In this document: piece after piece, positions 1,156 to 53,589 of the stretch
Layout: each line of letters begins with the position of its first letter
Position numbering within the stretch: position 1 is the first letter of the stretch
NCBI RefSeq assembly: GCF_963921235.1
Contig: NC_086108.1
Span: forward strand, 52,330,001 to 52,394,000
Direction of reading: 5' to 3'
Length of the DNA: 64,000 nt
Origin: Mobula hypostoma
Taxonomy: Eukaryota
Translations under genes and position numbers: made by a program
Notes under the pieces: model-generated
What the model was told of the DNA's origin: nothing
What the model saw: the letters and a program-made list of their open reading frames with translations, nothing else
The model's database searches: none

Positions 1156-3135
1156 CTAGATAAGTGAGATGGAGAAGTGAGTTAGACATTTTTATTGCTT
1201 CAACAAGCCAAGTATGGAACTGATTTACACATATTTCAGAAGACTGCACATACAATAGCAAATTACAAAATTCCTAATTGAATTTTTTATATCTCAAAGC
1301 AGCTTGTATAGCTTTAAGTGTAGTAAAGCAACAGAAGTTTTTATCATGAGTGCTTTTAAGAAAAACTTTTCACCACACTACATATGATTGGAAAGTGGTA
1401 GGTTTTAAAGATTATTTGAATATTAGAGGCATATAAAGGTTTAGGAAAGGAATGCCAAAATCTAGGTTTTGACAGGTGAAGTGAAAGTCTCTAATGGTAG
1501 TATGATTATTTTGTTTAACTATGCAAAAGAACAGAACTGAAGGAGTGTCGAAACTCAAAGACTCTAAGGCTGATGGATCACAGAAACAGGCAAAGATTTA
1601 GAAACAGGGATAAATGTTTAAAATCATGGTATTACTTAACTGGGGGCAGCCATTTCTGACTTCAGTTGAATAGTCAAGGAATGGAACCAGGTCAGTGTAA
1701 TCCATCTGGACATCGGTAGTAAAAATGGTAGATAGAATTTTCAATGATGTCAACAACCCCATTCAGGGCAAGAAGGCATTGTTTCTCTTGAAATTGTTAT
1801 ATCTACCATCAATTGAGATTTTGGCAAGGGACTTCTAGAAACAATAAAGGAGGATTTGGGAAGCAACAATGGATTCAAAGATTTTGAAGAAAAGGGTCGA
1901 CTACAAAAACATTGATGTTTCACTGAGCATATTGACGGCAGATTTGAAGGAGTGCGAATGTTACTGTAGGAGAGACTACATCAGCTTTCATGAGAACCAA
2001 AAATTAAGCTAGCTATGCAGCAGTTTAATGGGAATAGGTCTAAACTGTAGAAGGTGATTCTCAAGGATAAGAAAAGAGGGAAATTAGGAAAAAATTACCC
2101 TTTCCAGATGAAGGCAGGAAGGTACAGCATAGAAAGCAGCTAGCTCAGTTGAGTGGATAAAGCTTCATGATTAAGAAGTTCATGATTTCTTTACACTTTG
2201 TTGCAGGAGGTGAACGTGAGGCAGTAGCCTTGAAAAATTCACAGATCAAATATTGACGCAATAAACAAAAATGAAATTGTAGGAAAGAAAATACAAGAGA
2301 ACCAGAAAATGACTGATAAAGAACAAAGGTGCAAACAATGCAACATGCATGAACATTTTTTGTTGTTGTAATACTGAAAGAAAGTAGTAATTTATAACAA
2401 GAGGAAAAACATTAGTGGCCTTCTATTACTGCAAACCAACCTCCGAAAATATCCTAAAGATATTGTGACATACTGTATGGTTTTATCTAAGGAAAAGCTA
2501 AGACTAACAAACCTTAGACTACATCTAAACCTAAGCCGCCCTGGCCAGGTGTGATTTGTGCTAGGATGAAGGACTGTTGAAAAAAATAATATGGACTTAT
2601 TATATTTAAGAGTTAAAAAACCACTGACTACTTAAGTAGTTCTAGAGTTAAGAATCAAATGTTGCATGTTTTTACCGAGACAAATATAGTCAAAACAATG
2701 ACAGCATTGTCCAAAGGGCCTGCACTGTGCTGTACTGTGCTATGCTTGATGTTCATTGTGTCATATACTAAAATGACAAAACATTTTTAAATTGCAGATT
2801 GAGATAAGTATATATCTAATCCTCAGTCAACAATATTTAAGTAGGGAAATGTACTTGCTGACTTGCTCCTACATACATTTTTATTCAATTACAATGCATG
2901 GTAACTCAGAGAATGATGAAGAACATAGTTCCCTACCCCCACCTCAAGAACTACTGAGCCAGATTGGGAACTAGTATTGAGTTCAGCACTACATGTGTAT
3001 GTACATTTCACATCTAATTGCTCCATCACAAAACTAATTGGCTCAAACAATAAACATTGGCTTCAATGGGAAACAGAAAATTATACTGGATGGTTAAAAT
3101 AGGAATAGGCCTAAACCATAGAAGGCAATTATCAT

Positions 3136-3551
3136 TATAGTGTTCTCGTGCAGGGTGTTGAAACTCTGACTAAACACCAAGTTAAACTGGAGCCAATGAA
3201 GACAGAGTCGTAGTAAGGTTAACCATTTACTGTTCACTCTTCCATACATTAACATCGTATGGTGAAAAGGCGTTGCTTCTATAATGTTTCTTTGTGGGTA
3301 GACACGGAGCTCTTCACGATCACGCTGCACGCATGGCACCCATCTTCACACCTTCTCTGAACTGGAGGTTACACATAAGATGCGGCGAAACCGGAGGTGA
3401 TGTCATCACATGCCACGATATACCATAGACAATGGATTTACCTTTGTTATACTGTAACTTAATTATCAGCCTTTAACTAGAAAATAGTTACAAGCAAATC
3501 ATTTAAAACGTAGACCCAACAAAGTCAAATAAATGCCTTAAGGGCAACACA
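3136..3551 (-). repeat. 3' LTR of the BEL/Pao element
   Basis: Begins TGTGTTGCC on the minus strand; about 19 substitutions and one 2-nt indel relative to 6280-6693 (counted by eye). Confidence 0.93.
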
Positions 3552-3608
3552 CTCCCTGTCTGACCTTTGTAAAGTCACTATAAACATGGTATAAAACTAG
3601 TCCCTTGA

Positions 3609-6240
3609 TCAGTCCTTAGGTAGAAGTAGAACAACCTCTGTAACTGGTCTCAGGTTTCCTTTTCAGGGTTCGTTGTAAAGATGTGAACCAGTTGACTGCC
3701 TGCTCTTTGTTGTTTGGCAAGCGCTGGCGCAGTACTCTGAATGGTAGTGGGGCGACCCAGTTGTTCGCTTTGTCCCCAAAAACCTGTGTGTTCATTATTT
3801 TTAAGGAGATGGCGTTTTCCACAGATGGAGCAAGTTTATTATCATGCTTAGTTTGAGCAAAGACTGACTGTCCCAGTGTCTTCTCAGTTACTTTACTATG
3901 CTCATGCCTTTGTTGTGCTTCCTTGATACACATAACACTTGTGGAGGGCTGAGAAATGGAATGGCAGCCACTCTCTAGCACGTTAGTCTTGAGCGTGTTA
4001 ACTGTCCGTTTGTGTACGTTGCCAGGGCACACCTCTCCTATAACCACCCAGCCCAGATCCAGACGTTGGGTGAAGGGGGCGTTGTGTGGTCCATTGACCT
4101 GCTGCCTGACTTGGTGCACCCTAAGAACGTCACTTCCGAGTAGCAGGAGTATTTCTGCTTCCGGATCCAGTTCTGGGATGTGCTTGGCAATGTGGTGGAG
4201 ATGGGGCTGGTGTAGCACTGTGCTTGTCGCCGGAATTCGGATCGGTTATTTAAGATCTCATTGCACTCTAAGAGTGGAGGGAGGCTGATGACGACTTTGC
4301 CATCCAGCGACTCCAGCTGGAAGCCTTCTTCCTTCCTGCCATGTTTCTGCGATGCCAGAGCAAGTTCTGAGGTAGTATGGGAATGGATTACCCTTTACGC
4401 TGAACAACTTGAAGAACTCTGGTCTCACTAGTGGGCGGTCACTCTGGTCATCCAGAATTACATAGGCTTTGATGGCCTTGTCTCTGGCTCCCTTAGGGTA
4501 TACCTTAGTGAGCCAGATCTCTGAGCATGAACGGCGCGACTGACCTGGACTGCAAACTTCTGTGCAGCTCGAGCTGACAATAGTTGTATCAGAGTGATCC
4601 TCACTCTTCCCGGCATCCTCTTGAGGGAGTGGAGGAGCCTTGGCAGTTTGCAGTGACAGACCAGGATGCATGGCTCCATCGTGATTAGGGCTGTTACATT
4701 CCGAGCACTTTACGGGGAACATATACTCTTTAGTGAGGTAGGAGGTAGAGGAACAGCACTTATAACATATTCTTTCTTCCTTGAGAAGGGCCTTTCTTTC
4801 GTCAAAGGGTTTGTTTCAAAACATTCTGCATTTTTTGAGGGGGTAGGGTTTGTTGTGCAATGGACAATTCTTGCTAGGGTCATCGTTGATTGTGGAGACT
4901 TCAGTTTTATGCACTGAGACGGGTTTATTGATAACAAAATTGTTCGAAATGTGTTTGACTGGGTTGGTGTGAGTTGTGGTGCTGCCTTGATTCATGAAGC
5001 TAGGGTTGCTTCGCCTCTTCGCCTCCTTGCACACAAACCTACTAAAATATTCAAAGGGAGGGAATTGACCACCATTCTCTTCCTTGTACTCTGAGCCAAT
5101 AGACACCCATCTTTCCTGCAGCCCAAATGGAAAGGAAGTTTGTCCACAATTGGTCCAACTCCGCGTGAAGTATCCAAATACGAAAGGCCAGTTAAATAGC
5201 CGTCTTCCTTAGCACCTTGAATCTCCATGAGTAAATCTCTGAGTTCTCGTAATTCAGTGTGGTCCTTGGCTGACACCCTAGGAAAATTGTCCAGGCATTG
5301 AAATAGCGCCCTCTCAATAATTTCAGGGGCCGCATGGCAGTTCTGAAGTCTCTCCCATGCTTTGTGTAAGGCTAGCTTGGGGTTGTTGACATACATTGAG
5401 CGTATGCGTTTCACCTGTTCACTTGATTCTTTTCCCAGCCATTTAGTCATAAGGTCCAACTCTTGGATTGCTGTGAGCTGGACTCCGCCGGTGGCACTGG
5501 TGAATGAGGAGTATCACGCACGGTAATTTTCAGGCTTATCGTCAAACTGGCACAGTCCTGAATTGACGAGGTCTCGCCGCACTAAATACTGTGCCAAGGG
5601 TTCTGCTGGAGGTGGCGTGCTAGCTGGGGGAATATGTTGGGGGACATATGACTGAGCGTGTATGTTCATGATAGAATTTGATGTTCTGACTTCGGCCTTT
5701 GTCTCTGATCTCACCGGATCTGGTAAGTTTGGTGTCGGGAAGTATTCGTAGTCAGCACTTTCATACTTGAATTTGTGGCAAGGTTGCAATTGTGAGTTGT
5801 CTTCCCCAGGTGGATGCGATGCAATGAAGCTTCCCTGTGATTTCACATGAGATGGGAGAATGAATCTGCAGGTCAATTTGAGATTGGACATATTTGCTGG
5901 TGCGTTCCAGTTTGGCCCTTTCCAACATAGATTTTCCTGTTTTGTCTAGAACATGCATTTCTTCACCGTTTTCCAACACTCATGCTTCCACCACGGCCGC
6001 ATCAGCTTCTCATTGTAGCATCAGCACTTCTAACTCTGTATCTATCCTTGCCTTTTCCAACTGGTTTTCCGCTTCTCTGGCAGCCTTTTCCATTTTCAGT
6101 TTTACTTCTTGGTTAGCGTATGACGCTCGCACCTTGGCAGCTTCTGCTTTAGCTCTTGTGAGGTCAGCCACACTTGTCGACGTCCTACTGCTCTTGGCGC
6201 TGAGTGCAAGCGACTTGATGCTTGATCGCAAAACCATCGT
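3609..6240 (-). pseudogene. Disrupted BEL gag-protease polyprotein, joined to the last 13 residues of pol
   Basis: ORF fragments 6010-6324, 5514-5891, 4992-5459, 4816-5106, 4258-4722, 3616-4218; terminal RPVTEVVLLLPKD* at 3650-3609. Confidence 0.85.
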
Positions 6241-6279
6241 ACCACTTGTCAAAACATCTAATTGATTATGCCTTTTCAC

Positions 6280-6693
6280 TATAGTGTTCTCATGCAGTGT
6301 GTTGAAACTCTGACTAAACACCAAGTTAAACCGGAGCTAATGAAGACAGAGTCGTAGTAAGGTTAACCATTTACTGTTCACTCTTCCACATTAACATCAT
6401 ATGGTGAAAAGGCATTGCTTCTATAATGTTTCTTTGTGGGTAGACACGGAGCTCTTCATGATCATGCTGCACGCATGGTACCCACCTTCACACCTTCTCT
6501 GAACTGGAGGTTACACATAAGACACTGCGAAACCGGAGGTGACGTCATCACATGCCGCAATATACCATAGACAATGGATTTACCTTTGTTATACTGTAAC
6601 TTAATTATCAACCTTTAACTAGAAAATAGTTACAAACAAATCATTTAAAACATAGACCCAACAAAGTCAAATAAATGCCTTAAGGGCAACACA
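6280..6693 (-). repeat. 5' LTR of the BEL/Pao element
   Basis: Direct repeat of 3136-3551. Confidence 0.93.
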
Positions 6694-10330: not shown

Positions 10331-10460
10331 AAGTTCAAGCAACACACATCAAAGTTGCTGGTGAACGCAGCAGGCCAGGCAGCATCTCTAGGAAGAGGTA
10401 TAGTCGACGTTTCGGGCCAAGACCTTTGTCCAGCATCTCCAGAATTCCTCGTGTTTACGT
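10331..10460. mobile_element. Tiny Penelope-like 3'-terminal fragment with internal inversion and half hammerhead
   Basis: About 10331-10430 is the reverse complement of the Penelope 3' region at 48733-48825 plus the bases resuming at 49672; 10431-10455 matches the Penelope terminus near 49681-49703 in forward orientation. Confidence 0.75.
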
Positions 10461-18788: not shown

Positions 18789-18882
18789 CTCTGATGGATC
18801 ATGAGCCCACTGTCCATCTACAAAGAACTTGTATTGGTGCTCTCCTTCAGGCAGATCAAGGATAGCAACAAAGTCATTGTGG
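18789..18882 (-). CDS. PRKAB2: AMPK beta-2 coding exon ((S)HNDFVAILDLPEGEHQYKFFVDGQWAHDPSE)
   Basis: 94 nt, cag/gtatgt splice sites; core of the CBM48 glycogen-binding domain. Confidence 0.96.
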
Positions 18883-21266
18883 CTGTTAAAAGTTAGAAAG
18901 GCTACACTGTATTATTAAAAACTTTATGATCAAACAAAATTAACATATTTTTGCAATATCTTTTCAATTTTCTCATTTTCCCTCTTGTAGAAAAAAAACT
19001 CTGTAACCCTGAAGTCTTTATTATGAATTTGTAACATTTGTAAACCTGTAATGTAATAAAATGGGGTCTATGAAATCCTAAGGTGCTTTGCTAGTTTGGG
19101 TGAGAAAACTTACAGGTGTGTTTGCATTGTATGAGAACAAATTATTTTCTTTGATGACAGGCAATTGTTTTCTGGCCTGGGGGATGTTTGACAAGAAAAA
19201 CAGGATGAAACTTCAAAACATCAAATGTGTGAACGAAATAAGGAAGATAACAGAGGAATGAATATAATGTTATGGAATGGAGCAATCTAATCACTGTTAA
19301 AAAAAAACTAGGTATAAAAGTATTTTGATTTAAACAGAAGAACAGAGCTATATTTCCAGATGAAACTTGGCTAGAAGTATATCTCCCCTTGCAAGTAAAA
19401 TAATAAATGTGTTAACAATGTGATCCACTGTGAATTTGTTGTAGGTTGGTCCTGACTCATTATGCTGCAAAGACATGACTTCTGTCTCGGTCCTGCTCGC
19501 CTACATTGGAAGACCTAGCTAAATGGTACCTGACACCTTTCTGACTATCTCTGTGCAGTTCAGTCCGTTCAGGATCCAGTTAGAAGCTACTGGGAAGCTA
19601 AATGGCTCAGAATGTCTAATATTCATCAAGTTTTACATCCACACTATATATGGAAATGCAGAGCAGGTTTATTACCAAAACTCCTTATGTGAGGCTGTGC
19701 TAAACCAAGAAGAAGCTGGAAATTGGCAACTCTTTACATGCAGGTCCAAAGGGAATCATCAAATATTCCCGCTTAGGACGAATACAGATAAAACCACACT
19801 CATGGCCAAGGGTACTTCAGTAAACATAATTTTAGGACATGTAAAAATCTCTTGATCCTCTAAAACTGGTGGACGCCAGACTGCAGACTCTCATTGTGGG
19901 TGTAGTTTTCCTTTAAGAAAAAGAAAATGAGGAAAGTGTGCTGGTCTGCAAGTAATAAAACTGAAAATACAGAGCCCTTACTCCCCGACTTCCTATTATC
20001 CTGCTGACAAATGTACGGTCTCTGGAAAATAAAACTGAAGACCTCAGAGCAAGTTTGCAGTACCAGAAGGAAATCAGGAACTGCTGTGTACTTTGCTTTA
20101 TGGAAACATGGCTCAACTCCACCATTTTGAATGCAGCACTGCAGCCCGAGAGCATCACCATCATTGTAAAGAGAGAACAGCTGAATCTCTTAAACATAGA
20201 GGAGGTGGAGTATGCTTCATGATTAACTCATTATGTTGCAAAGATGTGGCTTCTCTGCCTCAGTCCTGCTCACCCAACCTGGAATATCTCGAGGTCAAGT
20301 GTCGTCCATTTTATCTACTGAGGAAGCTTTCTGCTTCATCCTGATTGTGGTGTACATTCCACCCCTGGCCAACATCAAGGCAGCACTGGAGGAGCTGAAC
20401 ACTGATTAGCAATCACAAACTAGTACACCCTGATGCCTTTTTGATCATTGCAGGGGATTTTTAACAAGCCAGCTTGAAGAAGTCTCTGAACAAGTACCAC
20501 CAACATATCACCTCTTGAAACAGAGGAGCCAACACACTTCACCACAGTTATACCACCACCAAGAACACTTTCCATATCATCCCACGCACATACCTTGGAA
20601 TGTCTGATCACCCGGGGTACAGACAGAGACTGAGGACTGCAGCACCAATGGTGAGGCCCACGAAGGTATGGTTAAGGGAGGTGGAGGAGCACTTACAGGA
20701 TTGCCTTGAATCAGTGGACTGGACAACATTCAGGGATTCATCTTCAAATCTTAATGAATGTGCCACAGTTGTCACTGACTTCATCAAGACCTGTGTGGCT
20801 GCATGGATGTCTTCAAGAACATACCAGATAAACCCAAGTGAAAAGCCATGGATGAACCAGGAGTTTCATGGGCTGCTGAGGGATAGATCTGTGGCATTCA
20901 AACCTGGTGATCCAAAACTACGCAAGAAGTCCAGGTTTGACGTATGGAAGGCTAGTCTAAGAGTGAAAGAACAATTCTGATAGAAGTTCAAGACACCTGT
21001 CAGCTCTGGCAGGGTTTACAGACCATTACTTCCTAAAGGAAAAACCAGACATCATGAATGTCTGTGATGCTTCAGTCCCCATGTGCTCGATCTCTTTTAT
21101 GCATGCTTTGAAGGAAGAATAAAACTAAGCCTGTGCAAATCTCTGCAACATCTGTTGACCTTGTGATCTCGGTTTCAGAGGCTAATGTCAGAACATCCTT
21201 CAGGAGGGTGAACCCTCTGAAGGCATCAGTCCCTGATGGTGTACTTTTAGGGCACTAAAATCCTGT

Positions 21267-22137
21267 AAACACAAAATGATCTGCAGATGCTGTTGTCAAA
21301 GGAACACTCAATGCACTGGAGGAACTCAGCAGGTCAGTCAGCATCAGTTGAAAAGATTAGTCGACGTTTCGGGCCGAAACCCTTCGTCAGGACTGAAGGA
21401 AGAACTTTGGGGAGGGTTTGAAGAATGCTGGTAATTGAAAAAAACAGTAACTTGAAAGACAAAGGGGAGGGGGAGGGGAAGCAGGGAGGTGTTTGGCAGG
21501 AGAACAATGCGCAGTAGTAGAAGGAGGCGGAACTATGAGGGAGGTGATGTGAAATAGGGATAGAGGAAGGGAGGGGGAGGGAATTACCGGAAGTTGGAGA
21601 ATTCTATGTTCATACCAAGGAGCTGGAGACTACCTAGACGGTACATAAGGTGTTGCTCCTCCAACCTGAGTTTAGCCTCATCATGGCAGTAGAGGAGGCC
21701 ATGTATGGACATATCTGAATGGGAATGGGAAGCAGAGTTAAAGTGGGTGGCTACCGGGAGATCCTGTCTGTTGTGGCGGATGGAGTGGAGCTGCTCGATG
21801 AAGCGGTCCCCCAAACTGCGTCAGGTTTCACCGATGTAGAGGAGGCCGCACCGGGAGCACCAGATACAATAGATGACCCCAACAGATTCGCAAGTGAAGT
21901 GTTGCCTCACCTGGAAGGACTGTTTGGGGCCCTGAATGGTGGCAAGAGAGGAGGTGTAGAGACAGGTGTAGCACTTACGCTTACAGGGATAAGTGCCGGG
22001 TGGGAGATCCGTGGGGATGGACTTGCGGATAAGTGAGTCGCGGAGGGATTGATCCCTGTAGAAAGCGGAGAGGAGTGGAGAGGGAAAGATGTGCTTAGTG
22101 GTGGGGTCCTGTTGAAGGTGGCGGAAGTTGCGGAGGA
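21267..22137 (-). mobile_element. Penelope-like retroelement 3' fragment (GIY-YIG endonuclease)
   Basis: FTCESVGVIYCIWCSRCGLLYIGET...GDRFIEQL..PVATHFNSASHSH; degenerate 11-bp TSD taaaatcctgt/taaaaacttgt. Confidence 0.9.
21359..21394 (-). ncRNA. Minimal type-I hammerhead ribozyme, intact core
   Basis: Minus strand: agtc CUGACGA a GGGU uucg GCCC GAAAC GUC gacu. Stem I agtc/gact, stem II 4 bp, loop-less palindromic stem III (ACGU), GUC cleavage triplet. Confidence 0.85.
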
Positions 22138-23419
22138 TAAAAACTTGTACCAACCAATCGGCAACAGTGTTCAATGACATCTTCAATCTCTCACTGCTGC
22201 AATCAGAGGTTCTCAGCTGCTTCAAAAGGGCAATAATTATACAAATGCCCAAGATGAGCAGGGTGAGTTGCTTCTACGACAAGTAATAAAGTGCTTTAAG
22301 AGGTTAGTCATAGCCAGAACTAACTCTTGCCTAAGCAAGAGCTTGGACCTGCTGCAGTTGCCTATCACCACAATAGGTTTACAGCAATTCAATCTCAGTG
22401 GCTTTGCACTCAACCTTAGATCACCTGGACAATACCAATACCTATGTCAGGCTGCTGATAATTGATTACAGCTCAGTATTCAACACCATCACACCCTCAG
22501 TACTAATTAGCAAGCTCCAAAACCTGGGTCCTTATACCTCCCTCTGCAACTGGATCCTTGACTTCCTTATTGGGGTCCACAGTCAGTTATCACAAATAAC
22601 TTCTCCTCCTCACTGACAATCAACACTGGCATACCTCAAGGATGCGTGCTTAACCTACTGCTCTACTCTCTCTTCACCTGCAACTGTGTGGCTAGGCACA
22701 ACTCAAGCGCAATCTATAAATTTGCTGATGACACAACTATTGTTGACAGAATTTTAAATGATGGCAATGGTATAGGAGTGAGATAAGTCAGCTGGTTGAA
22801 TGGTGTTGCAACAACAACCTTGCACTCTACGTCAGTAAGACCAAGGAAGTGATTGTGGATTTCAGGAAGGGGAAGTCGAGGGAACATACACCAGTCCCGA
22901 TCAAAAATTCAGCAGTGGAAAGGGTGAGCAGCTTCATGTTCCTGAGCGTCAACATCTTTAAGGATCTATCCTCAGTCCAATATATTGATTCAATTATAGA
23001 GTAGGCACAATAGCGGCCACACTTTAATGTGAATTTGACAAGATTTGGTATATTACCACAAACTCCAGCGATTTCTACAGATTACCATGCAGAGCACTCT
23101 AACTAGTTGTATCACCACCTGGTATGGAGGGGCCACCCAAAAGGATCAGAAAAGGCTGAAAAATTGTAAGCGTAGTCAGCCCCATTATGGGCACTAGCTT
23201 CCCCAGCACCAAGGACATCTTCGAAAAGCGATAGCTCAAGAAGGATGCATGCATCGTTGAGGACCTCCCTCCTCCCCCAGTACATACCCTCTTCTCATCG
23301 CTACCATCAAGGACATGGTACAGGAGCCTGAAGACACACACTCAGCATTTCGGGACAGCTCTCCCATCCGTTAACAGATTTCTGAACAGACAATTAATCC
23401 ATTAACACTACCTCACCAT

Positions 23420-25307: not shown

Positions 25308-25474
25308 CTTTTTATAAGTGGAATCTTGGCTTGCCAATTGTTGAAGGATCCAGAAATGAATACTTCTTTTCCTCCACCATTCCAGCGGATGACAGTGGGA
25401 CGAGCTTGTTGAGAAAACTTCACAGACTCATCCACATCAGCGTGCCAGGGTGCAAATTCCTTATCAGTGAGAGG
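25308..25474 (-). CDS. PRKAB2: AMPK beta-2 coding exon (PLTDKEFAPWHADVDESVKFSQQARPTVIRWNGGGKEVFISGSFNNWQAKIPLIK(S))
   Basis: 167 nt, tag/gtacat splice sites; QQARPTVIRW, KEVFISGSFNNW and KIPLIKS are beta-2-type. Confidence 0.96.
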
Positions 25475-29163: not shown

Positions 29164-29331
29164 CTTTGAGCCTTGCGTATGAAAGATGTTGGGATCATCA
29201 GAGCTATCCACCATAATCTTATGACGTTCATTCTCCTTTGATGATTGAGAAATTCCCATGTTGTCAGCACGCTGAGACTTGTGGCCTCCATGGCGATCTG
29301 CTCCCATGCGATCACTACTGGTGTTCCCCAT
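29164..29331 (-). CDS. PRKAB2: AMPK beta-2 first coding exon (MGNTSSDRMGADRHGGHKSQ...KIMVDSSDDPNIFHTQGSK), with N-myristoylation motif
   Basis: ATG at 29331 in strong context (gcaATGg); 168 nt = 56 codons to the gtgcag donor at 29163. Probable acceptor tag at 29362-29360 gives 28 nt of 5'UTR. Confidence 0.93.
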
Positions 29332-30665: not shown

Positions 30666-31203
30666 CAACCTGATAAAAAGATTTTAAGTTCAGAGTTCAA
30701 TTGCACTATATATTTGCAAAATAACTCATTGCTCACGAAGCTTAAATACTTGGACATATTTTTTTCCTGTGACCCTCTAACCATAGGCTCATAATGAGTT
30801 AGCTAGTACTGTGAATGCAAATTAACAGTAACATAACTCTACAATGCATGAGAATAACAATGAAAAGACCATTTCCAATAAATAAACACATCTAGAGTAA
30901 CTATGATTCTGATGAACATAAAACAAATGTTTGAATTTTCCTTTAAGGGAAAGTAGGACTGTTACTTGTATAAATACTAACACACCCATATAAATTTACT
31001 GTTCGCCTGAAAGCTATAACTTAACTCATACCAGTATAAGTTTAGATTAAAGTTGTATTGACAAAATATTTTAAACCATAACAAACACAATAAAGAAAAG
31101 AGCCCACTACACATATACTAATTAGCCTATAGTGTGCACATAACTGTTGGAGCTCATTTTTGTGTAATCAATCTGGTTTGCTTCACTTAATTTACTCACG
31201 GTA

Positions 31204-32739
31204 CAGGTGTCCCCCACTTTTCCAACGTTCGCTTTACAAAACCTCACTGTTACGAAAGACCTACATTAGTACCCTGTTTTCGCTTTCAGAAGGTGTTTTC
31301 ACTGTTACGAAAAAAAGCTGGCGAAAAAATCAGCACACGCCCTGAGCAGCCGCTCTCCCCGGATTCGGAATGGCATTCTAGCCAGCATTGCTTAAACACA
31401 TGCCTGTGAGCAGCCATTTGCAAGATAAGTTCTAAGGTATCAGAAAGGCCTGAAAGAGCTCGTAAGGGTGTTACACTTAGTGTAAAACTAGACATAATTA
31501 AGCATTTCGATCATGGTGAACAAAGTAAGGACTAAGTGAGTTTGGCTTGTGGAAGCTGATGAAGATGATGTTGAAGAGGTTTTGGCATCACATGACCAAG
31601 AACTGATAGATGAAGAGCTGATGCAATTGGAAGAGGAAAGGATAACAATCGAAACCAAATGCAGTAGCGAACTGAAAGTGAAGGAACTGCGTGAGATCTT
31701 CACTGCAATAATAAAGTACAACTTTAACTTTGAAAACGTATGTCGGTTTAAGGGATATTTGCAAGATGGTTTGAGTGCTTACAAAGAACTGTATGATAGA
31801 AAAATGCGCGAGGCTCAGCAGTCAAGCAAGCCTTCCACATCAGCCACAGCAGACGACGAACCTCGACCTTCGACATTGAGGCAGGCAAACATAGGAGAAG
31901 ATGAGCTGCCTGCCCTAATGGAAACAGACGATGAGATGACACCCCAGTGTCCCACCACCCCAACACCCAGGCCGCGGACAGATACCGATTCGTGCAGAAC
32001 GCAGCAGTAGCCGGGAGACACACAGCACATCTTTAAGGAAAAAAGCCAAAATAAACATGCTAATTAATTATGTGCCAGGCAGCACCTAATTAATTAGCAT
32101 GTTTATTTCGGCTTTTTTTTTAAAGATGTGCTGTGTGCCTCCCGGCTACCGCTGGACCCCTGCGTGCTTCGCGGCAATATATCGGTCGGCGGCCTGGAGG
32201 GTGGGGGCCACTGCACCACCCCAACCTGCGACAACTCAGCCTAACACACCATCAGTGTGCTCGGCGCTGTTTTCCCAATTCCGGTAAGTGATACTACACT
32301 GTACATACATTATTTCTACTTTATATAGGCTGTGTATTTTTACCTGTTATTTGGTATGATTTGGCATGATTTGGCAGCTTCATAGCTTAATGGTTACGGG
32401 AGAGAGTGTATTTGCCAACAGCGCTTGCGTGAGATTTTCTGCCTACGGCGCTTGTGCGAGATTTTCGCCACAGAGAACAGTGTAGCAATGATTGTGGAAA
32501 AGTATTTCTACTTTATATAGGCTGTGTATTTATCACGTCATTCCTGCTTTTATATATGTTACTGTTACTTTATGTTTTATGTGTTATTTGGCATGATTTG
32601 GTCGGTTATTTTTGGGTCTGCGAACGCTCACAAAATTTTCCCATATAAATAAATGGTAATTGCTTCTTCGCTTTACGACATTCCGGCTTACGAACCGTTT
32701 CATAGGAATGCTCTACCTTCGGATGGCGGGGGAAACCTG
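31204..32739 (+). mobile_element. Tigger-like non-autonomous DNA transposon, copy 1
   Basis: TA TSD, TIRs caggtgtccccc / gggggaaacctg; psq-HTH remnant (RKGVTLSVKLDIIKHFDHGE) and acidic C-terminal remnant ORF 31549-32010; no DDE domain. Confidence 0.9.
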
Positions 32740-33597
32740 TACCGAGCAATTCTGTCTGAAAACACAGTCCAAGTGAATCATAAATAAATTTCCACATAAC
32801 ATCTAAGGACAAAGTGTCGAACTGTCTCCAAGGTCGTGTGAAAACTAGCTATCTAAAACTTATCTGCACAATAACTGCAAGACCATGACCTTGATGAGAA
32901 TTTTCCGACACCAGTATCTGTCCTTCCAAATCAACTCATGTTCTTCTGCTATGTTTGTTGTCTGTTTCTATTTTCCTTCTTTCTTCTTCTTCCTCCAAAA
33001 CTCCTGCACTCTCTCCAGAAAATGGTTATTCTTGATACCTCTAGAGTGTTGTGGGGCATCTTATTTGCAAGACAATTCCAATTGGCTAATTCAACAAGCC
33101 AAATTTATCAATCAACTGAATTACTTGACCATATAACGTAATTAAAGGAACACAATGCATTTTGAGAAAATCTGCGGAAAAATACCCTACAGCATAACTG
33201 CATTAATAAAATGAAGCATGGTCTTAAACCAGGGTATTACATTCCTCTGATGCCTGAAAATTGAAAAACATTTCTAACAATTAAAACTGTAAAAGATTGA
33301 CTAATAGAGGTTCAGATTTTCTTAAAAACAATAGCTGAAAGATTCATCTCCGTGGAATTACCAATAGTTAATAGTCATGCAACAGGAAATAATCAAGACT
33401 TCCTTCCTGTTGCAATTGAACCAGCAGTCTAAACTTGACTTTTCAGCAAACTGATATAGAAGATAACACAAAACAGAAGCAGGAATAATATACATAGCCG
33501 GCCTGACATTATACCTGGCAAGGTACTGAGAACCTGTGCCTACTAACTGGTTGGATTTTTCAATATCTTCAACCTATCACTGCTGCATTCTGAGGTT

Positions 33598-34662: not shown

Positions 34663-35960
34663 CAAAATTTGTTGTTTTGTAGCGGCAGTGCAGTGCAATA
34701 CAATACATTAAAAAGTGCAAGAGAGCAAAATACTCATGTTCATAGGTTCATGGACTATTCAGAAATCTGATGATGAAGAAGCTGCTCCTAAAACATTGAG
34801 TGTGTGTCTTCAGACTCCTGTATCTCCTCCCTGATAGTACTAATAAGAAGGGGGCATGTCCTGAGTGGGAGGGGGTTCTTAAAACCTCTTTGAGGCATCA
34901 CCTTTTAAAGATGTTCTTGATGGTGGGGAGGCTAGTACTCATGATAGAGCTAGCTGAATTTACAGCTCTCTGCAGCTCTTTCTGAACTTATGCATTAGTG
35001 CCTCACTACCAGACTCTGATTGAAACCTGTTAGAATTGTTACGAGAATACACATAAAATTAAGATGTTTGCTGGCCTGGGCTAGCATCAGTGGCATCAGC
35101 AGTTGGTCTGCCACCTGCCCTCAGGGGAAGGAGAGATAAGGAACAATGGAGCAGCGTCTGGAGATGTGTAATGAAGGGACGTGGGAGAGAGAGAGCTGTC
35201 TGGAGCAGCTCCCCCCTTTGAACCCTGAACTGTTTGAAGTGATGGACAGGCGATGCCCCAGCAGGGGGATAAAAAGGGACAGGTTCGCTAAGACAGGGAC
35301 ACACACGCCACCCGAGGTAACGAGACCCTGGAAGCGGTGCGCCTCTCACGAGTGGGTGAGAAGTACCAGATAACGACAAGGGTGGAAAGGTACGATCAGC
35401 GGGAACCCGGTGTGTGTCCGCCCTTGCCTGGGTGCCGGGTTCACTGCAGAGGATCGACCGCATCTGGAGGAGGGGTCACAGTCGGTGACCTCAGGTGACA
35501 TCACCAAGGACCCGCCCAAAAATTGCTTGTGAGCAATATCGCTGGTCTGTGAGTGAAGCAGTGTTCTGAATGATCAGTTGTTCCTGTTCTCTCTGTCTCT
35601 CTTCCCGCACGTTGTCCATCGCCATGGCAACGATTACTGCGAACTGAACTGGACTGAACTTTGAGTCATTTTGAAATTTGGTCATTCACCCCTAGACGAC
35701 GATAGAGCTTGATTGATGCTGTTATCTTAATTCTGTGCACATGTGTGTTTATCATCGCTGAACTGTTGCATTTATTATCCTTTCGATTACTGTGTTGCTT
35801 GTTTCTTTAATAAAACTTTCTTAGTTCTAGTACTCCAGACTCCAACTGAGTGATCCATTTCTGCTGGTTTGGCAACCCAGTTACGGGGTACGTAACAGAA
35901 TGCTCTCCACGGTACATCTGCAGTAATTTGCTTGAGTCTTTGGTGACATACCAAATCTCC
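34663..35960 (-). mobile_element. Rex1/Babar 3' fragment interrupted by a solo LTR
   Basis: Reverse-complement similarity to other Rex 3' ends; continuous across the LTR TSD (gaat). Confidence 0.75.
35037..35897 (+). mobile_element. Solo LTR (Gypsy/ERV-type), 861 bp
   Basis: TGTTACG…CGTAACA ends, perfect 4-bp TSD gaat, AATAAA near 35809; highly similar to 48826-49671. Confidence 0.92.
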
Positions 35961-38148: not shown

Positions 38149-39050
38149 CTGAATGTAATATTAGTTGATTCAGCTAATGTTGGGAAATGCAGCATGCCAC
38201 CAACTGTTTCACTTAAAGAGGCTATTTCTATAAATAAAGCTACTATCTATACAAGAAATGTGGTTTTTCATAATATGACTTATTTAATATACAGATTGAG
38301 CATCCCTTATCCAAAATGTTTGGGGCCAGAAGTATTTTGGATTTTTTCGGATTTTGGAATATTTGCATCTTTATGATATCTTAGGGATGGGACCCAAGTC
38401 TAAACACAAATTCCATTTACATTACATACACAGCTTCTGCATATACCCTGACAGTAGTTTTATATAATATTTTTAATAACTTTGATCATGAAACAATAAT
38501 GAGTACATTGAACCAAAGGTAAGCTATCACTACATCGGCCACCCAGGTGAACAGTCAGTGGCTGTTTAGCAGTGCCATCATTCTTGACTCTGAACTGATA
38601 TGCTACCGGTTAGCAGTCTGTCTTACATTTGTTCATCACACATATGTACTAATACAGGTGTTCAGCATATTAAATTTTCTTCAGCAACATTCTTGGCAAA
38701 CTCATTAATGAATTTCTCTGCTGCTTCAATGATCAGTAGGTGTTTCATCCCCACAAATCTTTGAAAACCTAAAGCCCTGCCTTTTCTTAAATTTCTGCAA
38801 CCAGCCAGCTGAAAATTCACAATCACCTTCAATTTTCAGTTCATTGTGATAGATCTTTGCTTGTTTCATGATCAACATGCTGTTATAAGTGGCACTGACA
38901 CTGACAAATCCACTCTTTCAATACATATTTGAGATCTTCATTTTTTTGCTTTATGCAGTGTTTTTCTGTTTTTCATTAACTTTTGTTCATTACATATGTG
39001 AGGTCACATCTCAGAACTGTCTGTAGTGTGCAAGACCTGTGCAGCTTCTG

Positions 39051-41061
39051 AAAACACAAAATAATCTGCAGATACTGTGATCAAAGCAACATTTCAGTAC
39101 GCTGGATGAACTCAGCAGGTCGGGCAGCATCAGTTAGAAACGATGAGTCGACGTTTCCGGCCGGAACCCTTCGTCAGGACTGAAGAATGAAAGATGGGGA
39201 AGGATTTGAAGAATGTCAGTTGAAAAACCAGTAATTTGAAAGACAAAGAGGTGGGGGAGGGGGAAGCATTGACATCATAGCCCTGAAAACAATGGGTGGT
39301 AGAAGGAGGAGGCAGAACCATGAGGGAGCTGGGGAAGGGAGTAGAGTGAAACAGGGATAGAGGAAGGGAGGGGGAGGGAATTACCAGAAGTTGGAGAATT
39401 CTATGTTCATACCAAGGGGCTGGAGACTACTTAGACGGTATATGAGTTTAGCCTCATCATGGCAGTAGAGGAGGCCACGTATGGACATATCTGAACGGGA
39501 ATGGGAAGTAGAGTTGAAGTGGGTGGCTACCGGGAGATCCTGTCTGTTGTGGTGGACGGAGTGGAGGTGCTTGATGAAGCGGTCCCCCAATCTGCGTCGG
39601 GTTTCACCGATGCAGAGGAGGCCGCACCGGGAGCACCGGATGCAATAGATGACCCCAACAGACTCACAAGTGAAGTGTTGTCTCACCTAGAAGGACTGTT
39701 TGGGGCCCTGAATGGTTGCAAGAGAGGAGGTGTAGGGACAGGTGTAGCACTTACGCTTACGGGGATAAGTGCCGGGTGGGAGATCAGTGGGGATGGACGT
39801 GTGGATAAGGGAGTCACGGAGGGACCAATCCCTGCGGAAAGCGGAGAGGGTGGAGAAGGAAAGATGTGCTTAGTGGTGGGGTCCTGTTGAAAGTGGCGGA
39901 AGTTGCGGAGAATAATGTGCTGGATCCGGAGGCTGATGGGATGGTAGGTAAGGACAAGGGGAACTCTGTCCCTGTTGTGGTTGCGGGAGGATGGGGTGAG
40001 GGCCGAAGTGCGGGAAATGGAGGAGATGCGGGTGAGGGCATCATTGATGACGGTAGAAGGGAAACCACGATCCTTAAAGAAAGCGGACATTTGAGATGTC
40101 CTGGAACGGAAAGCCTCATCCTCAGTGCAGATGCGGCGGAGACAGAAGAACTGGGAATAGGGAATGGCATTTTTGCATGTGGTAGGGTGGGAAGAGGTAT
40201 AGTCGAGGTAGTTATGAGAGCCAGTGGGCTTGTAGAAGATGTCAGTGGACAGTCTGTCTCCAGAGATGGAGACCAAGACATCGAGAAAGGGGAGAGAAGT
40301 GTCCGAGATAGAGCAAGTGAACTTGAGGGCGGGGTGGAAGTTTGAAGTAAAGTCGATGAAATTGACGAGCTCAGCATGGGTGCAGGAAGCAGCACCAATG
40401 TAGTCATCAATGTACCGAAGGAAAAGTTGGGGAGCAGTACCAGAATAGGTTTGGAGCACAGACTGTTCCACATAACCAACGAAGAGGCAGGCATAGCTGG
40501 GTCCCGTGCGAGTTCCCATAGCTACACCCTTAGTCTGAAGAAAGTGGGAAGAGCCAAAAGAGAAGTTATTAAGTGTGAGAACCAGTTCCGCCAACCGGAA
40601 GAGGGTAGTGGTGGTGGGGAACTAGTGAGGTCTATTACTTACCACTGGAACAGGACCCCACCAAAAAACATCAAACCATTGTCTCCCGCACCATCACCAC
40701 CCTTATCAGCTCTGGAGACCTTCCATCCTCAGCCGCTAAACTCATTATTCCCACACCCCGTACCGCTTGGTTTTACCTCCTCCCAAAGATATGTCCCGGT
40801 AGACCCATAGTTTCTGCCTGCTCCTGTCCCACCAAACTTGTATCTGCCTACCTGGACTCCATTTTGTCACCCATAGTTCAGTCCCTCCCCACCTACATCC
40901 GGGATACATCCCATGCCCTCCAACTCTTCAATAACTTCCAATTCCCCGGTCCCAAATGCTACATTTTTACTATGGATGTCCAATCCTTATACACCTCCAT
41001 TCCCCATCAAGAAGGCCTCAAAGCCCTCCGCTACTTCCTGGATAATAGACCTCACCAGTTC
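39051..41061 (-). mobile_element. Penelope-like element (RT + GIY-YIG) with inverted 5' segment at about 40635-41061
   Basis: ORF 39683-40594 has KGVAMG and RYIDD; ORF 39381-39686 is the GIY-YIG domain; upstream RT motifs (RPIVS, FTMDVQSLYTSIP) are on the plus strand. Confidence 0.92.
39146..39181 (-). ncRNA. Minimal type-I hammerhead ribozyme with one stem II mismatch
   Basis: Minus strand: agtc CUGACGA a GGGU uccg GCCG GAAAC GUC gacu; core intact, first stem II pair is G/G. Confidence 0.75.
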
Positions 41062-43159
41062 TGGATAAGGGGTACTCAACATGCATAAAGTATGTTTGTT
41101 CATGTGTTTATGTTACCACTTTCTACATGAATGAGTGAGAAAATAATGAAACATTTCCTCCTAACTCACTTTTCATCAGTAAACTTAGATTCATTACTGT
41201 TTTATTATATTGCACCCAGTGAAATCATAATTTTAATTTTTTAAAAATCTTGTATGCTTCATTTCCTTCTACTGATTATGCCAGTTAATATGCTGTGTGA
41301 TTCAGTATTAAAGCATTATGGTCTTTTCCAAAAGCACTTACTAGAGATTTCTCTCCATGGTAGCTCACTGCAAGGGTCAAAGTTTTTGTCCTCATCTGAA
41401 CCGTGGCAAGAGCATCTATTGTACTGTGCAAAAGACTTAGGCACATGTAAAAAAAAATTCTGTAAAGCAAAGATACTTTCAAAAATAATGAGGTTTAAAG
41501 TTTCTAAATATCAAAACAATTACTATAAAGAGCAGTAAACAGTAAAAAAAACACTAAATTGAATCAGTATTTGGTGTGACCAACCTCTCTCTGCCTTTAA
41601 AACTGCATCAATTCTCTTAGGTACACTGTTGTGCAGTTTTATCAGAAAATCGGCTGGGAAGTTGTTCCAAGCATCTTGGAGAACTTGCCACAGTTATTCT
41701 GCAGACTTGGGCTGTCTCACTTGCTTCTGTTTCTCCAGGTAATCCCAGATAGCTTCAATGATGCTGAGATCCAGGCGAAGTAGAGGCCATAGCATCTATT
41801 GCAGATCTCTTTGTTCATCTTTTTGCTGAAGGTAGTTCTTTATGATCTTGGCCATGTGTTTGGGGGTCATTGTGCTGCTGCAGAGTGAAGTTGGGACTGA
41901 TCAGATGCCTCCCTGATGGTATTGTGTGATGGATGAGAATCTGCTTGAATTTTTCAGCATTGAGGATTCAATTAATTCTGACTAGTTCACCAACTCCATT
42001 TGCAGAAATGCAATCCCAAATCTGCAGGGAACCTTCGCTGTGCTTCACTGTTGGCTCCAGACACTCATCATGTAGCACTCTCCAGCTCTTCCATAGACAA
42101 ACTGCCTCCTGTTTGAGCTAGAAATTTAAAATTTTGACTCATCAGTCCAGACCACTTGCTTACGTTATTCAGCATCCCAGTCCTTGTGTTTTTGTGCACA
42201 GTTGAGACTCTTGGCTTTGTTTCCACTTCAGAAGAATGGCTTTTTGCAGCAACTTTTCCATGAAGACCACTTCTGACCAGACTTCTTCAGACTAAAGAGG
42301 GATGTGCTTGGGTTCCAGTGGTTTCTGTGAGTTCAGAGCTGATAGCAGTTCCGGAGGTCTTTCAGTTTAGAAGGGACATCAGCTTGTTGTATCTCTGATC
42401 TGTTGCACAGTGTCTCTTCAGAAGAGCTTGGACAGCACATCTTGAAACTGCTGTATACTGTAAAATTTATGCTTGGGAGAGACCTTGCTGAGGCAGGATG
42501 ACCATCTTGTGTCCTGTTGCTATACTCACTCTTGTTATGGGGTAAGAATTGATGATTTGAAGGTTAAATTGTCACATCTATCAAACCCTCATCTTTTAGT
42601 TTGGTTGTCCATTGCCCAATTTGATTCCTTCTACCACCTGTTTCTGTTTCAGTCAATCAATTCAGTTCAGTCAACTCATTATGTCATTGATTAATAGCAC
42701 CTGTTTATTATCTTTGTTTAATCATGCACTGGACAAAGATATAGCTACAAAGTAATCAGGTTTTTATTATTACTTAATATGTTACTTTCTATAACAAAAT
42801 ACAAAAATGACAGTGTTACATTTTTTGAAAAATATTTACTGCCTGTTATGCCACTGGCATTTAGGGCAACAATGAAGGTCCCCCATCTGTCTGTCTGTCC
42901 TTGGCCACTTTCTCTATTGTGCCCCAGGTGCGTCAGGGTCCTCAGTTTTGTCTCTACGGTACAGTGCCAAGTTGCCTTTGGTCTCCCATGTTTCCTCCGC
43001 CCTTCAGGGGTCCAATGAAGTGCTGCCTTGATGATGCCCTCTCTTCTCATCATGCGCCCAATCTATTTCCAACGTTTCCTCATGATGATTGTGGACATGT
43101 CCTCTTGATGACACTGGAGGAGTAGAGCATGGTTGGAGATCTTTCTCAGCCAGCAAATA

Positions 43160-45600: not shown

Positions 45601-48600
45601 CTAAAAAAAAAAGGAGGATTTTCCCAAGGTTCTTGGTGTGGAATGATGACAGCTTGGCAAGGTTGTTCTCTGTCATGTGCCAGCATTCTGACCCATACAA
45701 GAATGTGACCAGAACACAGCTCTGGTACAACTTCACCTTGGTGTGGACACTGTACTAGGTTGATCTCCATAGGTTGTTCATTGATCTGAAGATGTTTCTC
45801 GCTTTGCTATGTCGGCACTGAATGTTGTCCTTGGTCCCACCATCCTGCCAAATGATGCTGCACACGTTGATGAATTTGTTGGTTCTGGGTAAGTTGATGT
45901 CATATGCCTTGGTGGGAGAAGGAGACTCTACATTGAGAGTCATGGTCTAAGTCTTTCTCTGGATGACTCTGAGTCCAATCTGTCCACCAAAGGTGCAAAG
46001 GCACTGAGTTTTCTCTTGCACGTGCTGGTACGTATGTGATAGTAACACGAGACCATCCACAAAGTCAAGGACTTCTAAAGTGGAGAATAGAGTACACCTG
46101 CTGCCTCTCTGTTTATCTTTCTTTCTTTGCCTCATAGCCCAGTCAATTACCAAGTTAAATAGTATCACTGACATCACAAAGCCTTGTCTGCTTCATGTCT
46201 TGACTTAGCACTCCTTTCTTGGGGATCCTCACAATAACTCCCCTTGTCTAGTTCTTGGGTACTGGTCCCCAGTCCCAGCTTATGGTAAACAGTGGTTGCA
46301 GAGTGGCTGTTGCAGCTTTTGGTTCAGCTTTGAACAGTTCAGCATTCAAATTCTCACGTCCTGGAGCTTTGTTCTTCATATGGTATTTGTCTATTCAGTA
46401 ATTCTCTGAAATACTCTGTCCATTGTGCTTCTTGCTCCTTCTAGTTGTCAAAGGCAGATTGTTCTTATCTCTCATGGGACTATTCGATCTGGCCTGGAAC
46501 ATTTTGCTTATCAATTTTGAAATCTTGTATACATTTCCCAGATTTCCTCGATTGGCTGCTGCTTCAGCCTCCTTGGCAAGTTCTTCCATGTAGACTCTCT
46601 TATCCTTTCTTACAAATGCCTTCACTTTCTTGTTAGCTTCAGTGTATGCTAGCTAAAGGTTCACCTTAAGTCATGTTGACTTTGCATCTAACAGTGTCTT
46701 AATTTTCTGTCTTTCTTCTAAGGCTGCCTATGTTTCCATTCTTTGTTCTTCTTTCCAGCTCTGTATCCCAGACAAGCCTCGTTGCACTCCTTGAAGACTG
46801 GGGCAATCAATTCCCACATTGTGTCGATCTTGTCTACTGACACATCCTTGTCAAGGTCTTGCAAGGCCTGGGATCTGTTCTTAAGGTGAATGATGAATGC
46901 AGATCTCACACTGGTTTCCTTGAGCTTTTCAACATCAAAACTTCTTTGTACATGTGTTCTGGTCGCAGTGCTTCTCAGCTTGAGTTTCATCATTGCTACA
47001 ACAAGGTGGTGATCACTTCCTGTATATGCTCCTCTCTTCACTTTTACATCCTGTAATGATAGTCTCCATGTATCATTGTTCATTAAATAGTCACTCTGGT
47101 TCTGTAGACTCTACCTCCGATTGCAGTTGTTCATAGAAGACATCATTTTCTTCAATGTCATTATCGTTAGTTGGAGCACAGCACTGACTTCCTTTTCAGT
47201 GTGACTCTCCTCAGCCTACTGTCGCTACATTTACTTTTGTGGAACAATCTATGTTCCGTGCCTATTCTGGTATCTGTCCCCCACTTTTCCTTCACTACAT
47301 CCACTTTTGTGGAACAATCTATGTTCTGTGCCTATTCTGGTATCTGTCCCCCACTTTTCCTTCGCTACATCGACGACTGCATTGGCACTGCTTCCTGCAC
47401 GCATGCAGAGCTCGTTGACTTTATTAACTTTGCCTCCAACTTTCACCCTGCCCTCAAGTTTACCTGGTTCATTTCCGACACCTCCCTCCCCTTTCTAGAT
47501 CTTTCTGTCTCTGTCTCTGGAGACAGCTTATCCACTGATGTCTACTATAAGCCTACTGACTCTCACAGCTTTCTGGACTATTCCTCTTCTCACCCTGTCT
47601 CTTGCAAAAACGCCATCCCCTTCTCGCAATTCCTCCGTCTCCGCCGCATCTGCTCTCAGGATGAGGCTTTTCATTCTAGGACGAGGGAGATGTCTTCCTT
47701 TTTTAAAGAAAGGGGCTTCCCTTCCTCCACTATCAACTCTGCTCTTAAACGCATCTCCCCCATTTCACGTACATCTGCTCCCACTCCATCCTCCCGCCAC
47801 CCCACTAGGAATAGGGTTCCCCTGGTCCTCACCTACCACCCCACCAGCCTCCGGGTCCAACATATTATTCTCCGTAACTTCCGCCACCTCCAACGGGATC
47901 CCACCACTAAGCACATCTTTCCCTCCCCCGCCTCTCTGCATTCCACAGGGATCGCTCCCTACACGACTCCCTTGTCCATTCGTCCCCCCCCATCCCTCCC
48001 CACTGATCTCCCTCCTGGCACTTATCCGTGTAAGCGGAACAAGTGCTACACATGCCCTTACACTTCCTCCCTTACCACCATTCAGGGCCCCCAAACAGTC
48101 CTTCCAGGTGAGGCAACACTTCACTTGTGAGTCAGCTGGGGTGATATACTGCATCCGGTGCTCCCGATGTGGCCTTTTATATATTGGCGAGACGCGACGC
48201 AGACTGGGAGACCGCTTTGCTGAACACCTACGCTCTGTCTGCCAGAGAAAGCAGGATCTCCCAGTGGCCACACATTTTAATTCCACATCCCATTCCCATT
48301 GTGACATGTCTATCCACGGCCTCCTCTACTGTAAAGATGAAGCCACACTCAGGTTGGAGGAACAACACCTTATATTCCATCTGGGTAGCCTCCAACCTGA
48401 CGGCATGAACATCGACTTCTCTAACTTCCACTAATGCCCCACCTCCCCCTCGTACCCCATCTGTTACTTATTTTTATACACACATTCTTTCTCTCACTCT
48501 CCTTTTTCTCCCCCTGTCCCTCTGAATATACCCCTTGCCCATCCTCTGGGTACCCCCCCGTCTTTCTTCCCGGACCTCCTGTCCCATGATCCTCTCGTAT

Positions 48601-48723: not shown

Positions 48724-48759
48724 AGTCCTGACGAAGGATCTCGGCCTGAAACGTTGACT
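48724..48759 (+). ncRNA. Minimal type-I hammerhead ribozyme, partly degenerate
   Basis: agtc CUGACGA aggaucucggccu GAAAC GUU gacu; core intact, GUU triplet, weakened stem II. Confidence 0.7.
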
Positions 48760-48825: not shown

Positions 48826-49671
48826 TGTTACGAGAATACACATAAAATTAAGATGTTTGCTGGCCTGGGCTAGCATCAGTGGCATCAGCAGTTGGTCTGC
48901 CACCTGCCCTCAGGGGAAGGAGAGATAAGGAACAATGGAGCAGCGTCTGGAGATGTGTAATGAAGGAACGGGGGAGAGAGAGAGCTGTCTGGAGCGGCTC
49001 CCCTCTTTGAACCTTGAACTGTTTGAAGTGATGGACAGGCGATACCCCAGCAGGGAGATAAAAAGGGACAGGTTCGCTAAGGCTGGACACACGCCACCCG
49101 AGGTAACGAGACCCTGGAAGTGGTGCGCCTCTCACGAGTGGGTGAGAAGTATCAGACAACGACCAGGGTGGAAAGGTACGATCAGCGGGAACCCAGTGTG
49201 TGTCCGCCCTTGCCTGGGTGCCGGGTTCACTGCAGAGGATCGACCGCATCTGGAGGAGGGGTCACAGTCGGTGACCTCAGGTGACATCACCAAGGACCCG
49301 CCCAAAAGTTGCTTGTGAGCAATATCGCCGGTCTGTGAGTGAAGCAGTGTTCTGAATGATCAGTTGTTCCTGTTCTCTCTGTCTCTTCCCCCACCTTGTC
49401 CATCGCCATGGCAACGATTACTGCGAACTGAACTTTGAGTCACTTGGAAATTTGGTCATTTACCCCTAGACAACGATAGAGCTTGATTGATGCTGTTATC
49501 TTAATTCTGTGCACATGAGTGGTTATCATTGCTGAACTGTTGCATTTATTATCCTTTCGATTACTGTGTTGCTTATTTCTTTAATAAAACTTTCTTAGTT
49601 CTAGTACTCCAGACTCCAACTGAGTGATCCATTTCTGCTGGTTTGGCAACCCAGTTACGGGGTACGTAACA
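48826..49671 (+). mobile_element. Solo LTR, 846 bp, same family as 35037-35897
   Basis: TGTTACG…CGTAACA ends; perfect 4-bp TSD cttg. Confidence 0.92.
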
Positions 49672-53239: not shown

Positions 53240-53589
53240 TACATCCTGTTTGAAGATAAGGTAGTTCCAGTTACTGCCAGAGTTTGTAACTTTTCTTGCA
53301 AGTATGATTAAACAAAATGCAGCAAAATCACAGCTGAAAAAAGCTAGCAATTCAAAATTCAAAGTAAATTTATTATCAAAGTACATATATGTCACTATAT
53401 ACGACCTTGAGATTCATCTTCTTGCTAGCATTCACAGTAAAACAAAACAAATGAACTACCACCCAGAGCTGCCAGTTTCTGCCTTTGTAACTACAATGAA
53501 GTTCAGGTCTCCAGTACAGAAGTCCCAAAATGACCAGCACTGTCATTTCAACTGCACACTGACACTGGCCACAAACAGTTTGAGTTATT

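Follow-up and report, generated by a model that had tools for sequence, protein, structure and literature searches.

An intact minimal type-I hammerhead motif lies in sense orientation in a PRKAB2 intron of Mobula hypostoma, inside a broken Penelope-like element (PLE) that is itself nested in an older LINE relic. In our view the motif is most likely a passenger, inert and removed by splicing with the intron uncut (probability about 0.87). The terminal repeat to which it belongs is not unique to this intron, as four copies are found in the window, that is, in the whole stretch of 64,000 nucleotides that was analysed.

The motif is read from the minus strand, 21394 to 21359, as follows. A stem I of 4 bp is followed by CUGACGA, an extra A and a stem II of 4 bp, in which three G-C pairs and one U-G pair are capped by a 4-nt loop. 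GAAA comes next, then the C15.2-G16.2 pair with no loop, UC, and the 3' arm of stem I. Numbered as a hammerhead, the motif has C3 at 21390, the extra A at 21383, G10.1-C11.1 at 21382-21371, G12 at 21370, C17 at 21363, and position 1.1 at 21362. A preliminary description of this DNA had given the letters of a complete minimal hammerhead exactly as they stand here, and its predicted cut, between C17 and position 1.1, is correctly placed. The core pattern matches twice in the window; the mean over 100 shuffles is 0.00 matches. The published descriptor (PMC4209133, Fig. S7) also matches twice, at the 21394-21359 copy in the standard register and, with the register shifted, at the 48728 copy; 200 dinucleotide shuffles gave no match. 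A chance origin is ruled out, since neither set of shuffles yields a match. Rfam does not detect the motif: it returned no match at the gathering threshold, and none of the three matches at E<=10 in 21100-21700 is to a hammerhead family. Its folding stability relative to shuffles (z -0.96) is not exceptional and is neutral as support.

The features of minimal hammerheads present in the motif are stems I and II and the CUGANGA and GAAA..UH core, as set by the published descriptor, the extra base between A9 and 10.1, the G10.1-C11.1 pair, and the palindromic 15.2-16.2 segment (ACGU). The motif thus fits both the descriptor and the consensus of the PLE minimal hammerheads of Cervera and De la Pena 2014 (PMC4209133), with which it shares CUGANGAH, G10.1-C11.1, GAAAN-palindrome-NUH, and a 5' flank rich in U. 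The same CUGACGAA-GGG...GAAA-CGUC layout is found in the Neptune example from Acropora digitifera in the supplement of that paper. Compared with the Schistosoma minimal hammerhead, whose stem II is 7-8 bp, the 4-bp stem II of the PRKAB2 motif is short. Together with the location in a PLE terminal repeat, these sequence features support the identification, already made in the preliminary description, of a minimal hammerhead of Penelope type whose stem III, ACGU, has no loop.

Table 1. Coordinates of the hammerhead motif, its element and sister copies, and the neighboring PRKAB2 coding sequence in the window.
Feature	Position	Strand	Remarks
Minimal type-I hammerhead motif, intact	21359..21394	-	predicted cut 21363/21362
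5'-truncated Penelope-like element, 873 bp	21267..22139	-	ORF end, 3' UTR, hammerhead, 96-nt tail past cut
Remnant ORF	21584..22138	-	CX2-5CxxC linker, GIY-YIG-type end, in-frame TGA 21823, stop 21586
Left copy of 9-bp target-site duplication	22140..22148	-	
Right copy of 9-bp target-site duplication	21258..21266	-	differs from left copy at 2/9 positions
Older LINE relic interrupted by the element	21001..23416 (approximate)	+	
Second motif copy	39146..39181	-	core letters intact; C11.1 -> G breaks G10.1-C11.1
Third motif copy, strand opposite PRKAB2	48724..48759	+	A at 10.3, U11.1, GUU site
Fourth copy, ~92 bp	10336..10427	-	later PRKAB2 intron, sense; starts inside ribozyme, core missing
PRKAB2 coding exon upstream of motif	25308..25474	-	AMPK-beta motifs, AMPK1_CBM, beta-2 score
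PRKAB2 coding exon downstream of motif	18789..18882	-	AMPK-beta motifs, AG/GT boundaries
PRKAB2 first coding stretch	29164..29331	-	ATG at 29331

The limits of the element were set by blastn against the copies near 39 kb and 48 kb of the window, by tblastn, and by the flanks. In tblastn, 76 of 120 homologous proteins match over 21593-22219. The 873-bp piece, read from 22139 to 21267, matches 39915-39048 at 85% and 47854-48451 at 78% in blastn, and the ORF remnant is 93% identical to the 39-kb copy (37 differences over 532 sites) and 80% identical to the 48-kb copy. Only the linker and the endonuclease end of the protein are kept, with no RT; the Pfam GIY-YIG family has no match on the 873-bp piece, its match falling on the 48-kb copy. 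The motif is the 3' terminal repeat of the element, on the ORF strand and 448 nt past the YIG motif, and no ORF start is evident in the 96-nt tail past the cut. Both flanks of the element join on one paralogous LINE copy at 16.6 kb of the window with a 9-bp overlap, which is the target-site duplication. On this evidence the insertion is a 5'-truncated retroelement nested in an older LINE relic, since its flanks join on a single LINE in this way, and it is evidently dead, because it has no RT, carries an in-frame stop, and sits nested in the LINE. For PLE copies truncated at the 5' end, the 3' motif is described as the only one visible (PMC4209133).

By the linker criterion, the element would belong to the Neptune or the Nematis clade. 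The CX2-5CxxC linker marks these two clades and is absent in Penelope/Poseidon, according to Craig et al. 2021 (PMC8557442); its presence here led us to reject the Penelope/Poseidon clade. As in the Neptune and Nematis elements described there, the protein has a C-terminal GIY-YIG domain and the linker, the hammerhead lies in the terminal repeat, and an inverted 5' partner is found, in our case beside the 39-kb copy. The 21-kb copy differs from those elements in being without RT. The PAc Poseidon element of Anolis (Frangieh et al. 2024, PMC11167929) likewise has a hammerhead with a tail of comparable length behind it, 85-92 nt past the cut versus 96 nt in the PRKAB2 copy. PAc is of another clade, however, and has been assayed and found to be protein-assisted. 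The non-LTR retrozymes (bioRxiv 10.64898/2026.07.22.740005) are also related to PLEs, carry a type-I hammerhead, and are reported in one chondrichthyan; about 43% of the Xenopus copies lie in introns. Those are tandem and non-coding, whereas the PRKAB2 copy is single and attached to ORF remains. A tandem retrozyme was rejected, as the locus has one motif only and no tandem array.

The closest named relatives of the element protein are from Hypanus, Mobula, and Rhincodon. A longer protein with the endonuclease region was found in none of 357 candidates, so that no full-length element of the family was recovered from them, and the 64-kb window holds no intact element of the family. Three ray proteins named as host-gene isoforms (P0002, P0004, P0041) match the element RT at 66-80%, which suggests that host-gene models have absorbed pieces of the element.

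The second motif ends a longer element (39048-40693, minus strand), and the third ends an element starting at about 47236. Both elements carry RT and GIY-YIG remains, with RVT_1 below the Pfam cut-off (E 0.003-0.006) and GIY-YIG at the cut-off. The three full-length copies do not differ in their stem I arms or in the ACGU palindrome. The motif differences among the four copies are disruptive or lie in the loop, and none is compensatory, as would be expected of decay after insertion. The undamaged motif is one of three full-length motifs, or one of four copies. The 39-kb copy (minus strand, to 40693) abuts an inverted piece of the RT N-terminus (plus strand, 40621-41064), and the junction within 39048-41064 is a 5' inversion such as has been described in Penelope-like elements. 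At 10336-10460, the fourth copy adjoins a short inverted stretch that weakly resembles another tail (E 0.06).

The host exons were located with short AMPK-beta motifs and AG/GT boundaries. AMPK beta coding stretches are found on the minus strand at ~29331, 25474-25308, 18882-18789, 15270, 8970, and 1155, and Pfam AMPK1_CBM covers both exons flanking the motif. The upstream exon scores 79.5 bits with beta-2 versus 56.8 bits with beta-1, so PRKAB1 was rejected as the host gene. With AMPK beta exons on the minus strand on either side, the assignment of the motif to a PRKAB2 intron in sense orientation stands, and by position and strand the motif would indeed be part of the PRKAB2 pre-mRNA. The intron spans 6,425 nt, and its donor lies 3,945 nt before the cut site and its acceptor 2,480 nt past it; of 6,301 bases in this stretch of the intron, 2,767 are found a second time in the window. 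The end of the element tail (21300-21263) is pyrimidine-rich and then reads CAG on the PRKAB2 strand, resembling a splice acceptor. A long late PRKAB2 intron holds the remains of an LTR element (3129-6687), with minus-strand gag/protease-like frames and direct repeats at 3129-3545 and 6273-6687 that are ~95% alike.

Because splice-acceptor-like sites precede the ATG exon of PRKAB2, we infer a non-coding exon 1 upstream of it. The sole strong CpG island of the window, at 55250-56000, has an observed/expected ratio of ~1.2, a 27-bp GC-rich tandem repeat of 3.3 copies (55661-55749), and minus-strand donor-like sites. This segment is a candidate for the PRKAB2 promoter and the non-coding exon 1, and intron 1 would then extend over ~26 kb. 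Between 29.4 and 64 kb, non-repeat ORFs of at least 45 residues gave 178 candidates, and none of the 150 that were domain-scanned has a host coding domain. The matches in these 150 ORFs are to RT, Tc5, ALKBH8_N, and one sub-threshold ProRS; ALKBH8_N is a tail domain of LINEs.

Other repeats are scattered over the window. A pair of ~850-bp repeats at 35037-35897 and 48826-49671 is CpG-rich and 97-98% identical. Related DNA-transposon-like copies (87-95%) with internal inverted repeats lie at 31200-32750 and 51900-53250, and a Tc5 transposase domain lies apart from these at 38729-38917. An inverted repeat at 58125-59057 has 205-nt arms, 85% complementary and 523 nt apart.

Selection on the hammerhead has to be considered separately for the element lineage and for the PRKAB2 locus. 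For the lineage, an alignment of 30 RT sequences was used as the query, and 80 of 415 confirmed metagenome loci were taken. The descriptor identified 20 motifs in 18 of these 80 loci, 19 of them on the ORF strand, where 0.1 per set is expected (30 block shuffles). In 10 loci the motif lies 338-408 nt past the YIG motif, compared with 437-548 nt in the window copies; it is absent at that distance in 20 of the 30 loci with enough sequence. One locus (L007:982-4130) has two identical minimal hammerheads, 3,066 nt apart, flanking an open frame of 989 codons, and is apparently a whole Penelope-like element in tandem layout. Exact-pattern scans gave no match in the metagenome contigs or in the viral contigs. 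The window motif and 14 of the 20 metagenome matches were aligned (15 sequences), leaving out three duplicates, one minus-strand match, and two matches with a 2-nt loop III. Seven of the eight pairs change on both sides (0.80 versus 0.22 when shuffled), a count that is partly circular, since pairing was already required by the descriptor used to choose the rows; the fixed position and strand do not depend on this choice. The G10.1-C11.1 pair is invariant (15/15). Since relatives carry the motif in the same place and with covarying stems, the hammerhead fold is, by the comparison of these sequences, under selection in the element lineage.

Nothing in the sequence points to selection at the PRKAB2 locus, where the intactness of the motif fits the neutral decay of a fairly young copy. 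Changes private to the 21-kb copy number 19 over 532 ORF sites, five of them at 29 CpG positions, and its motif has no polarisable change of its own (0/36), with one ambiguous loop base. At the copy's own divergence, the neutral chance is ~0.25 that the motif stays intact and ~0.07 that it stays fully unchanged. That one of three full-length motifs is undamaged needs no special cause, although this is a weak test. These figures bear on the proposal that the motif is now a domesticated intronic ribozyme and tunes PRKAB2 mRNA in a race with splicing, which we consider highly improbable. It is true that the motif is in sense orientation in an intron and is the sole undamaged one of four in the window. 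Precedents also exist in the CPEB3 HDV-like ribozyme (PMC10919898) and the amniote RECK hammerhead (PMC6155905), both of them intronic and on the sense strand of a protein-coding gene. The precedents, however, are single-locus, conserved across species, and active as monomers, whereas the PRKAB2 motif is a copy of a dispersed repeat, without helix III and in need of a partner. It is still within an 873-bp element ~4% from its sister lineage, its intactness is within neutral expectation, and of the features that mark domesticated intronic ribozymes (PMC6155905) it has none. Timing is a further objection. At assumed rates of 4-1 kb/min, polymerase would take 37-149 s to reach the next exon, ~2.5 kb on, and a half-life near 1 min would be required over this distance. 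The tuned CPEB3 ribozyme has a reported half-life of 2-3 min (PMC10919898), which is close to the polymerase time, and it is unlikely that the PRKAB2 motif reaches a CPEB3-like cutting speed.

Folding was predicted with ViennaRNA, whose energies take no account of Mg2+, proteins, or tertiary contacts. For the isolated 36-mer the prediction is a rod with G5-A6-C7-G8 paired to C15.2-G16.2-U16.1-C17 (probability 0.98-1.0), that is, with the core paired to the cleavage site; the pair probability of the rod is 0.997 and that of the open form 0.0008. An active monomer fold was not obtained, as loop III is impossible and the rod is predicted instead. When 100-200 nt of flank are included, the rod and stem II are both unstable (0.06-0.10) and no fold dominates; the real fold in the intron context is uncertain. 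The same rod is also predicted in metagenome loci L002, L011, L014, L026, L036, L041, and L055, being commoner in relatives with C or U at position 7 and less common with A7. The idea that the rod is special to the family of the PRKAB2 copy was dropped, since among 17 loop-less relatives eight form it at >0.9 and four at <=0.3. The rod is thus a consequence of CUGA(C/U)GA together with CGUC. It is possible that the predicted rod is a built-in off state for single copies.

In the parent element, two copies would pair through ACGU, and each core would cut the site of its partner; alternatively, the motif there may work with the help of the element protein. A single strand cannot close stem III without a loop, and two copies pair through ACGU (PMC4209133). 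The same paper reports no detectable cleavage for the Schistosoma minimal monomer, low cleavage for dimers, and thousands of mostly single motif copies in coelacanth and Xenopus. A review states that minimal hammerhead rates are very low even in dimeric form (PMC6765202). A tandem partner was sought in the same intron by blastn and tblastn, and none was found. Against this, cleavage of such variants in dimeric form is claimed in the title of a paper by Lunse et al. (cited in PMC6765202). On the same strand, the nearest copy lies at a distance of 17.8 kb and no longer has the G10.1-C11.1 pair.

This arrangement bears on the proposal that the PRKAB2 motif pairs in cis with the 39146-39181 copy, forming a long-range double hammerhead on the same pre-mRNA. 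The 39-kb copy is of the same strand and subfamily, and it may lie in intron 1, given the CpG island at 55.25-56.0 kb and no host domain in the 150 scanned ORFs. The two partners, however, are separated by two exons in addition to the distance, and the site at 21363 would have to be cut by a partner core in which G10.1 is opposite G11.1. We find such pairing extremely improbable. For the PRKAB2 copy as an inert passenger, we propose instead that the lone motif folds into the rod, with the core paired to the cleavage site; that the site would stay uncut while polymerase reaches the next exon; and that the intron is then spliced out. The preliminary description had supposed that the motif could cut the intron. 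On the predicted folds, cutting of the PRKAB2 intron by the motif is unlikely, because the predicted rod would bury the core, the copy is solitary and lacks a tandem partner, and no cleavage is seen in published monomers.

Rare or slow cutting, in trans or protein-assisted and with no change to PRKAB2 output, is unlikely as well. Since stem I and ACGU are identical in the three full-length copies, any two transcripts of the family could pair. The Anolis PAc ribozyme, moreover, cleaves only with the element protein (PMC11167929), and splicing reportedly survives a slow intronic hammerhead cut (PMC2995048, citing Dye 2006 and Fong 2009). Against trans pairing, the double hammerhead is predicted at -14.7 versus -24.6 kcal/mol for two monomers, that is, ~10 kcal/mol worse, and the order is the same at 15-25 C. 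Also against this reading, no intact element is present within the window. The active PAc RNA reaches 146 nt past the cut (172 minus 26) versus 96 nt here, an analogy drawn across clades. The same study describes the PAc ribozyme as dispensable for insertion in vitro and reports no RNA-seq reads ending at its site (PMC11167929).

In a search made mostly without subscription journals, we found no published PLE hammerhead in a cartilaginous fish and no published ribozyme in PRKAB2. Cartilaginous fish, the group from which the PRKAB2 motif comes, are absent from the covered part of the PMC4209133 alignment and, as a term, from its supplement file. The function of PLE hammerheads is described as still open (PMC8557442).

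As it stands, the PRKAB2 motif is one more copy of a described motif and of little consequence; an intact-looking sense intronic ribozyme is expected by chance in genomes rich in such elements. It would matter if such intronic copies could be activated in trans. Because intact copies share stem I and the ACGU palindrome, it is tempting to propose that intact family copies in sense introns are latent sites, to be cut together in trans when family RNA or protein builds up, for example on derepression of the elements. We hold this to be very unlikely. If true, a retroelement could cut many host pre-mRNAs in trans, PRKAB2 among them.
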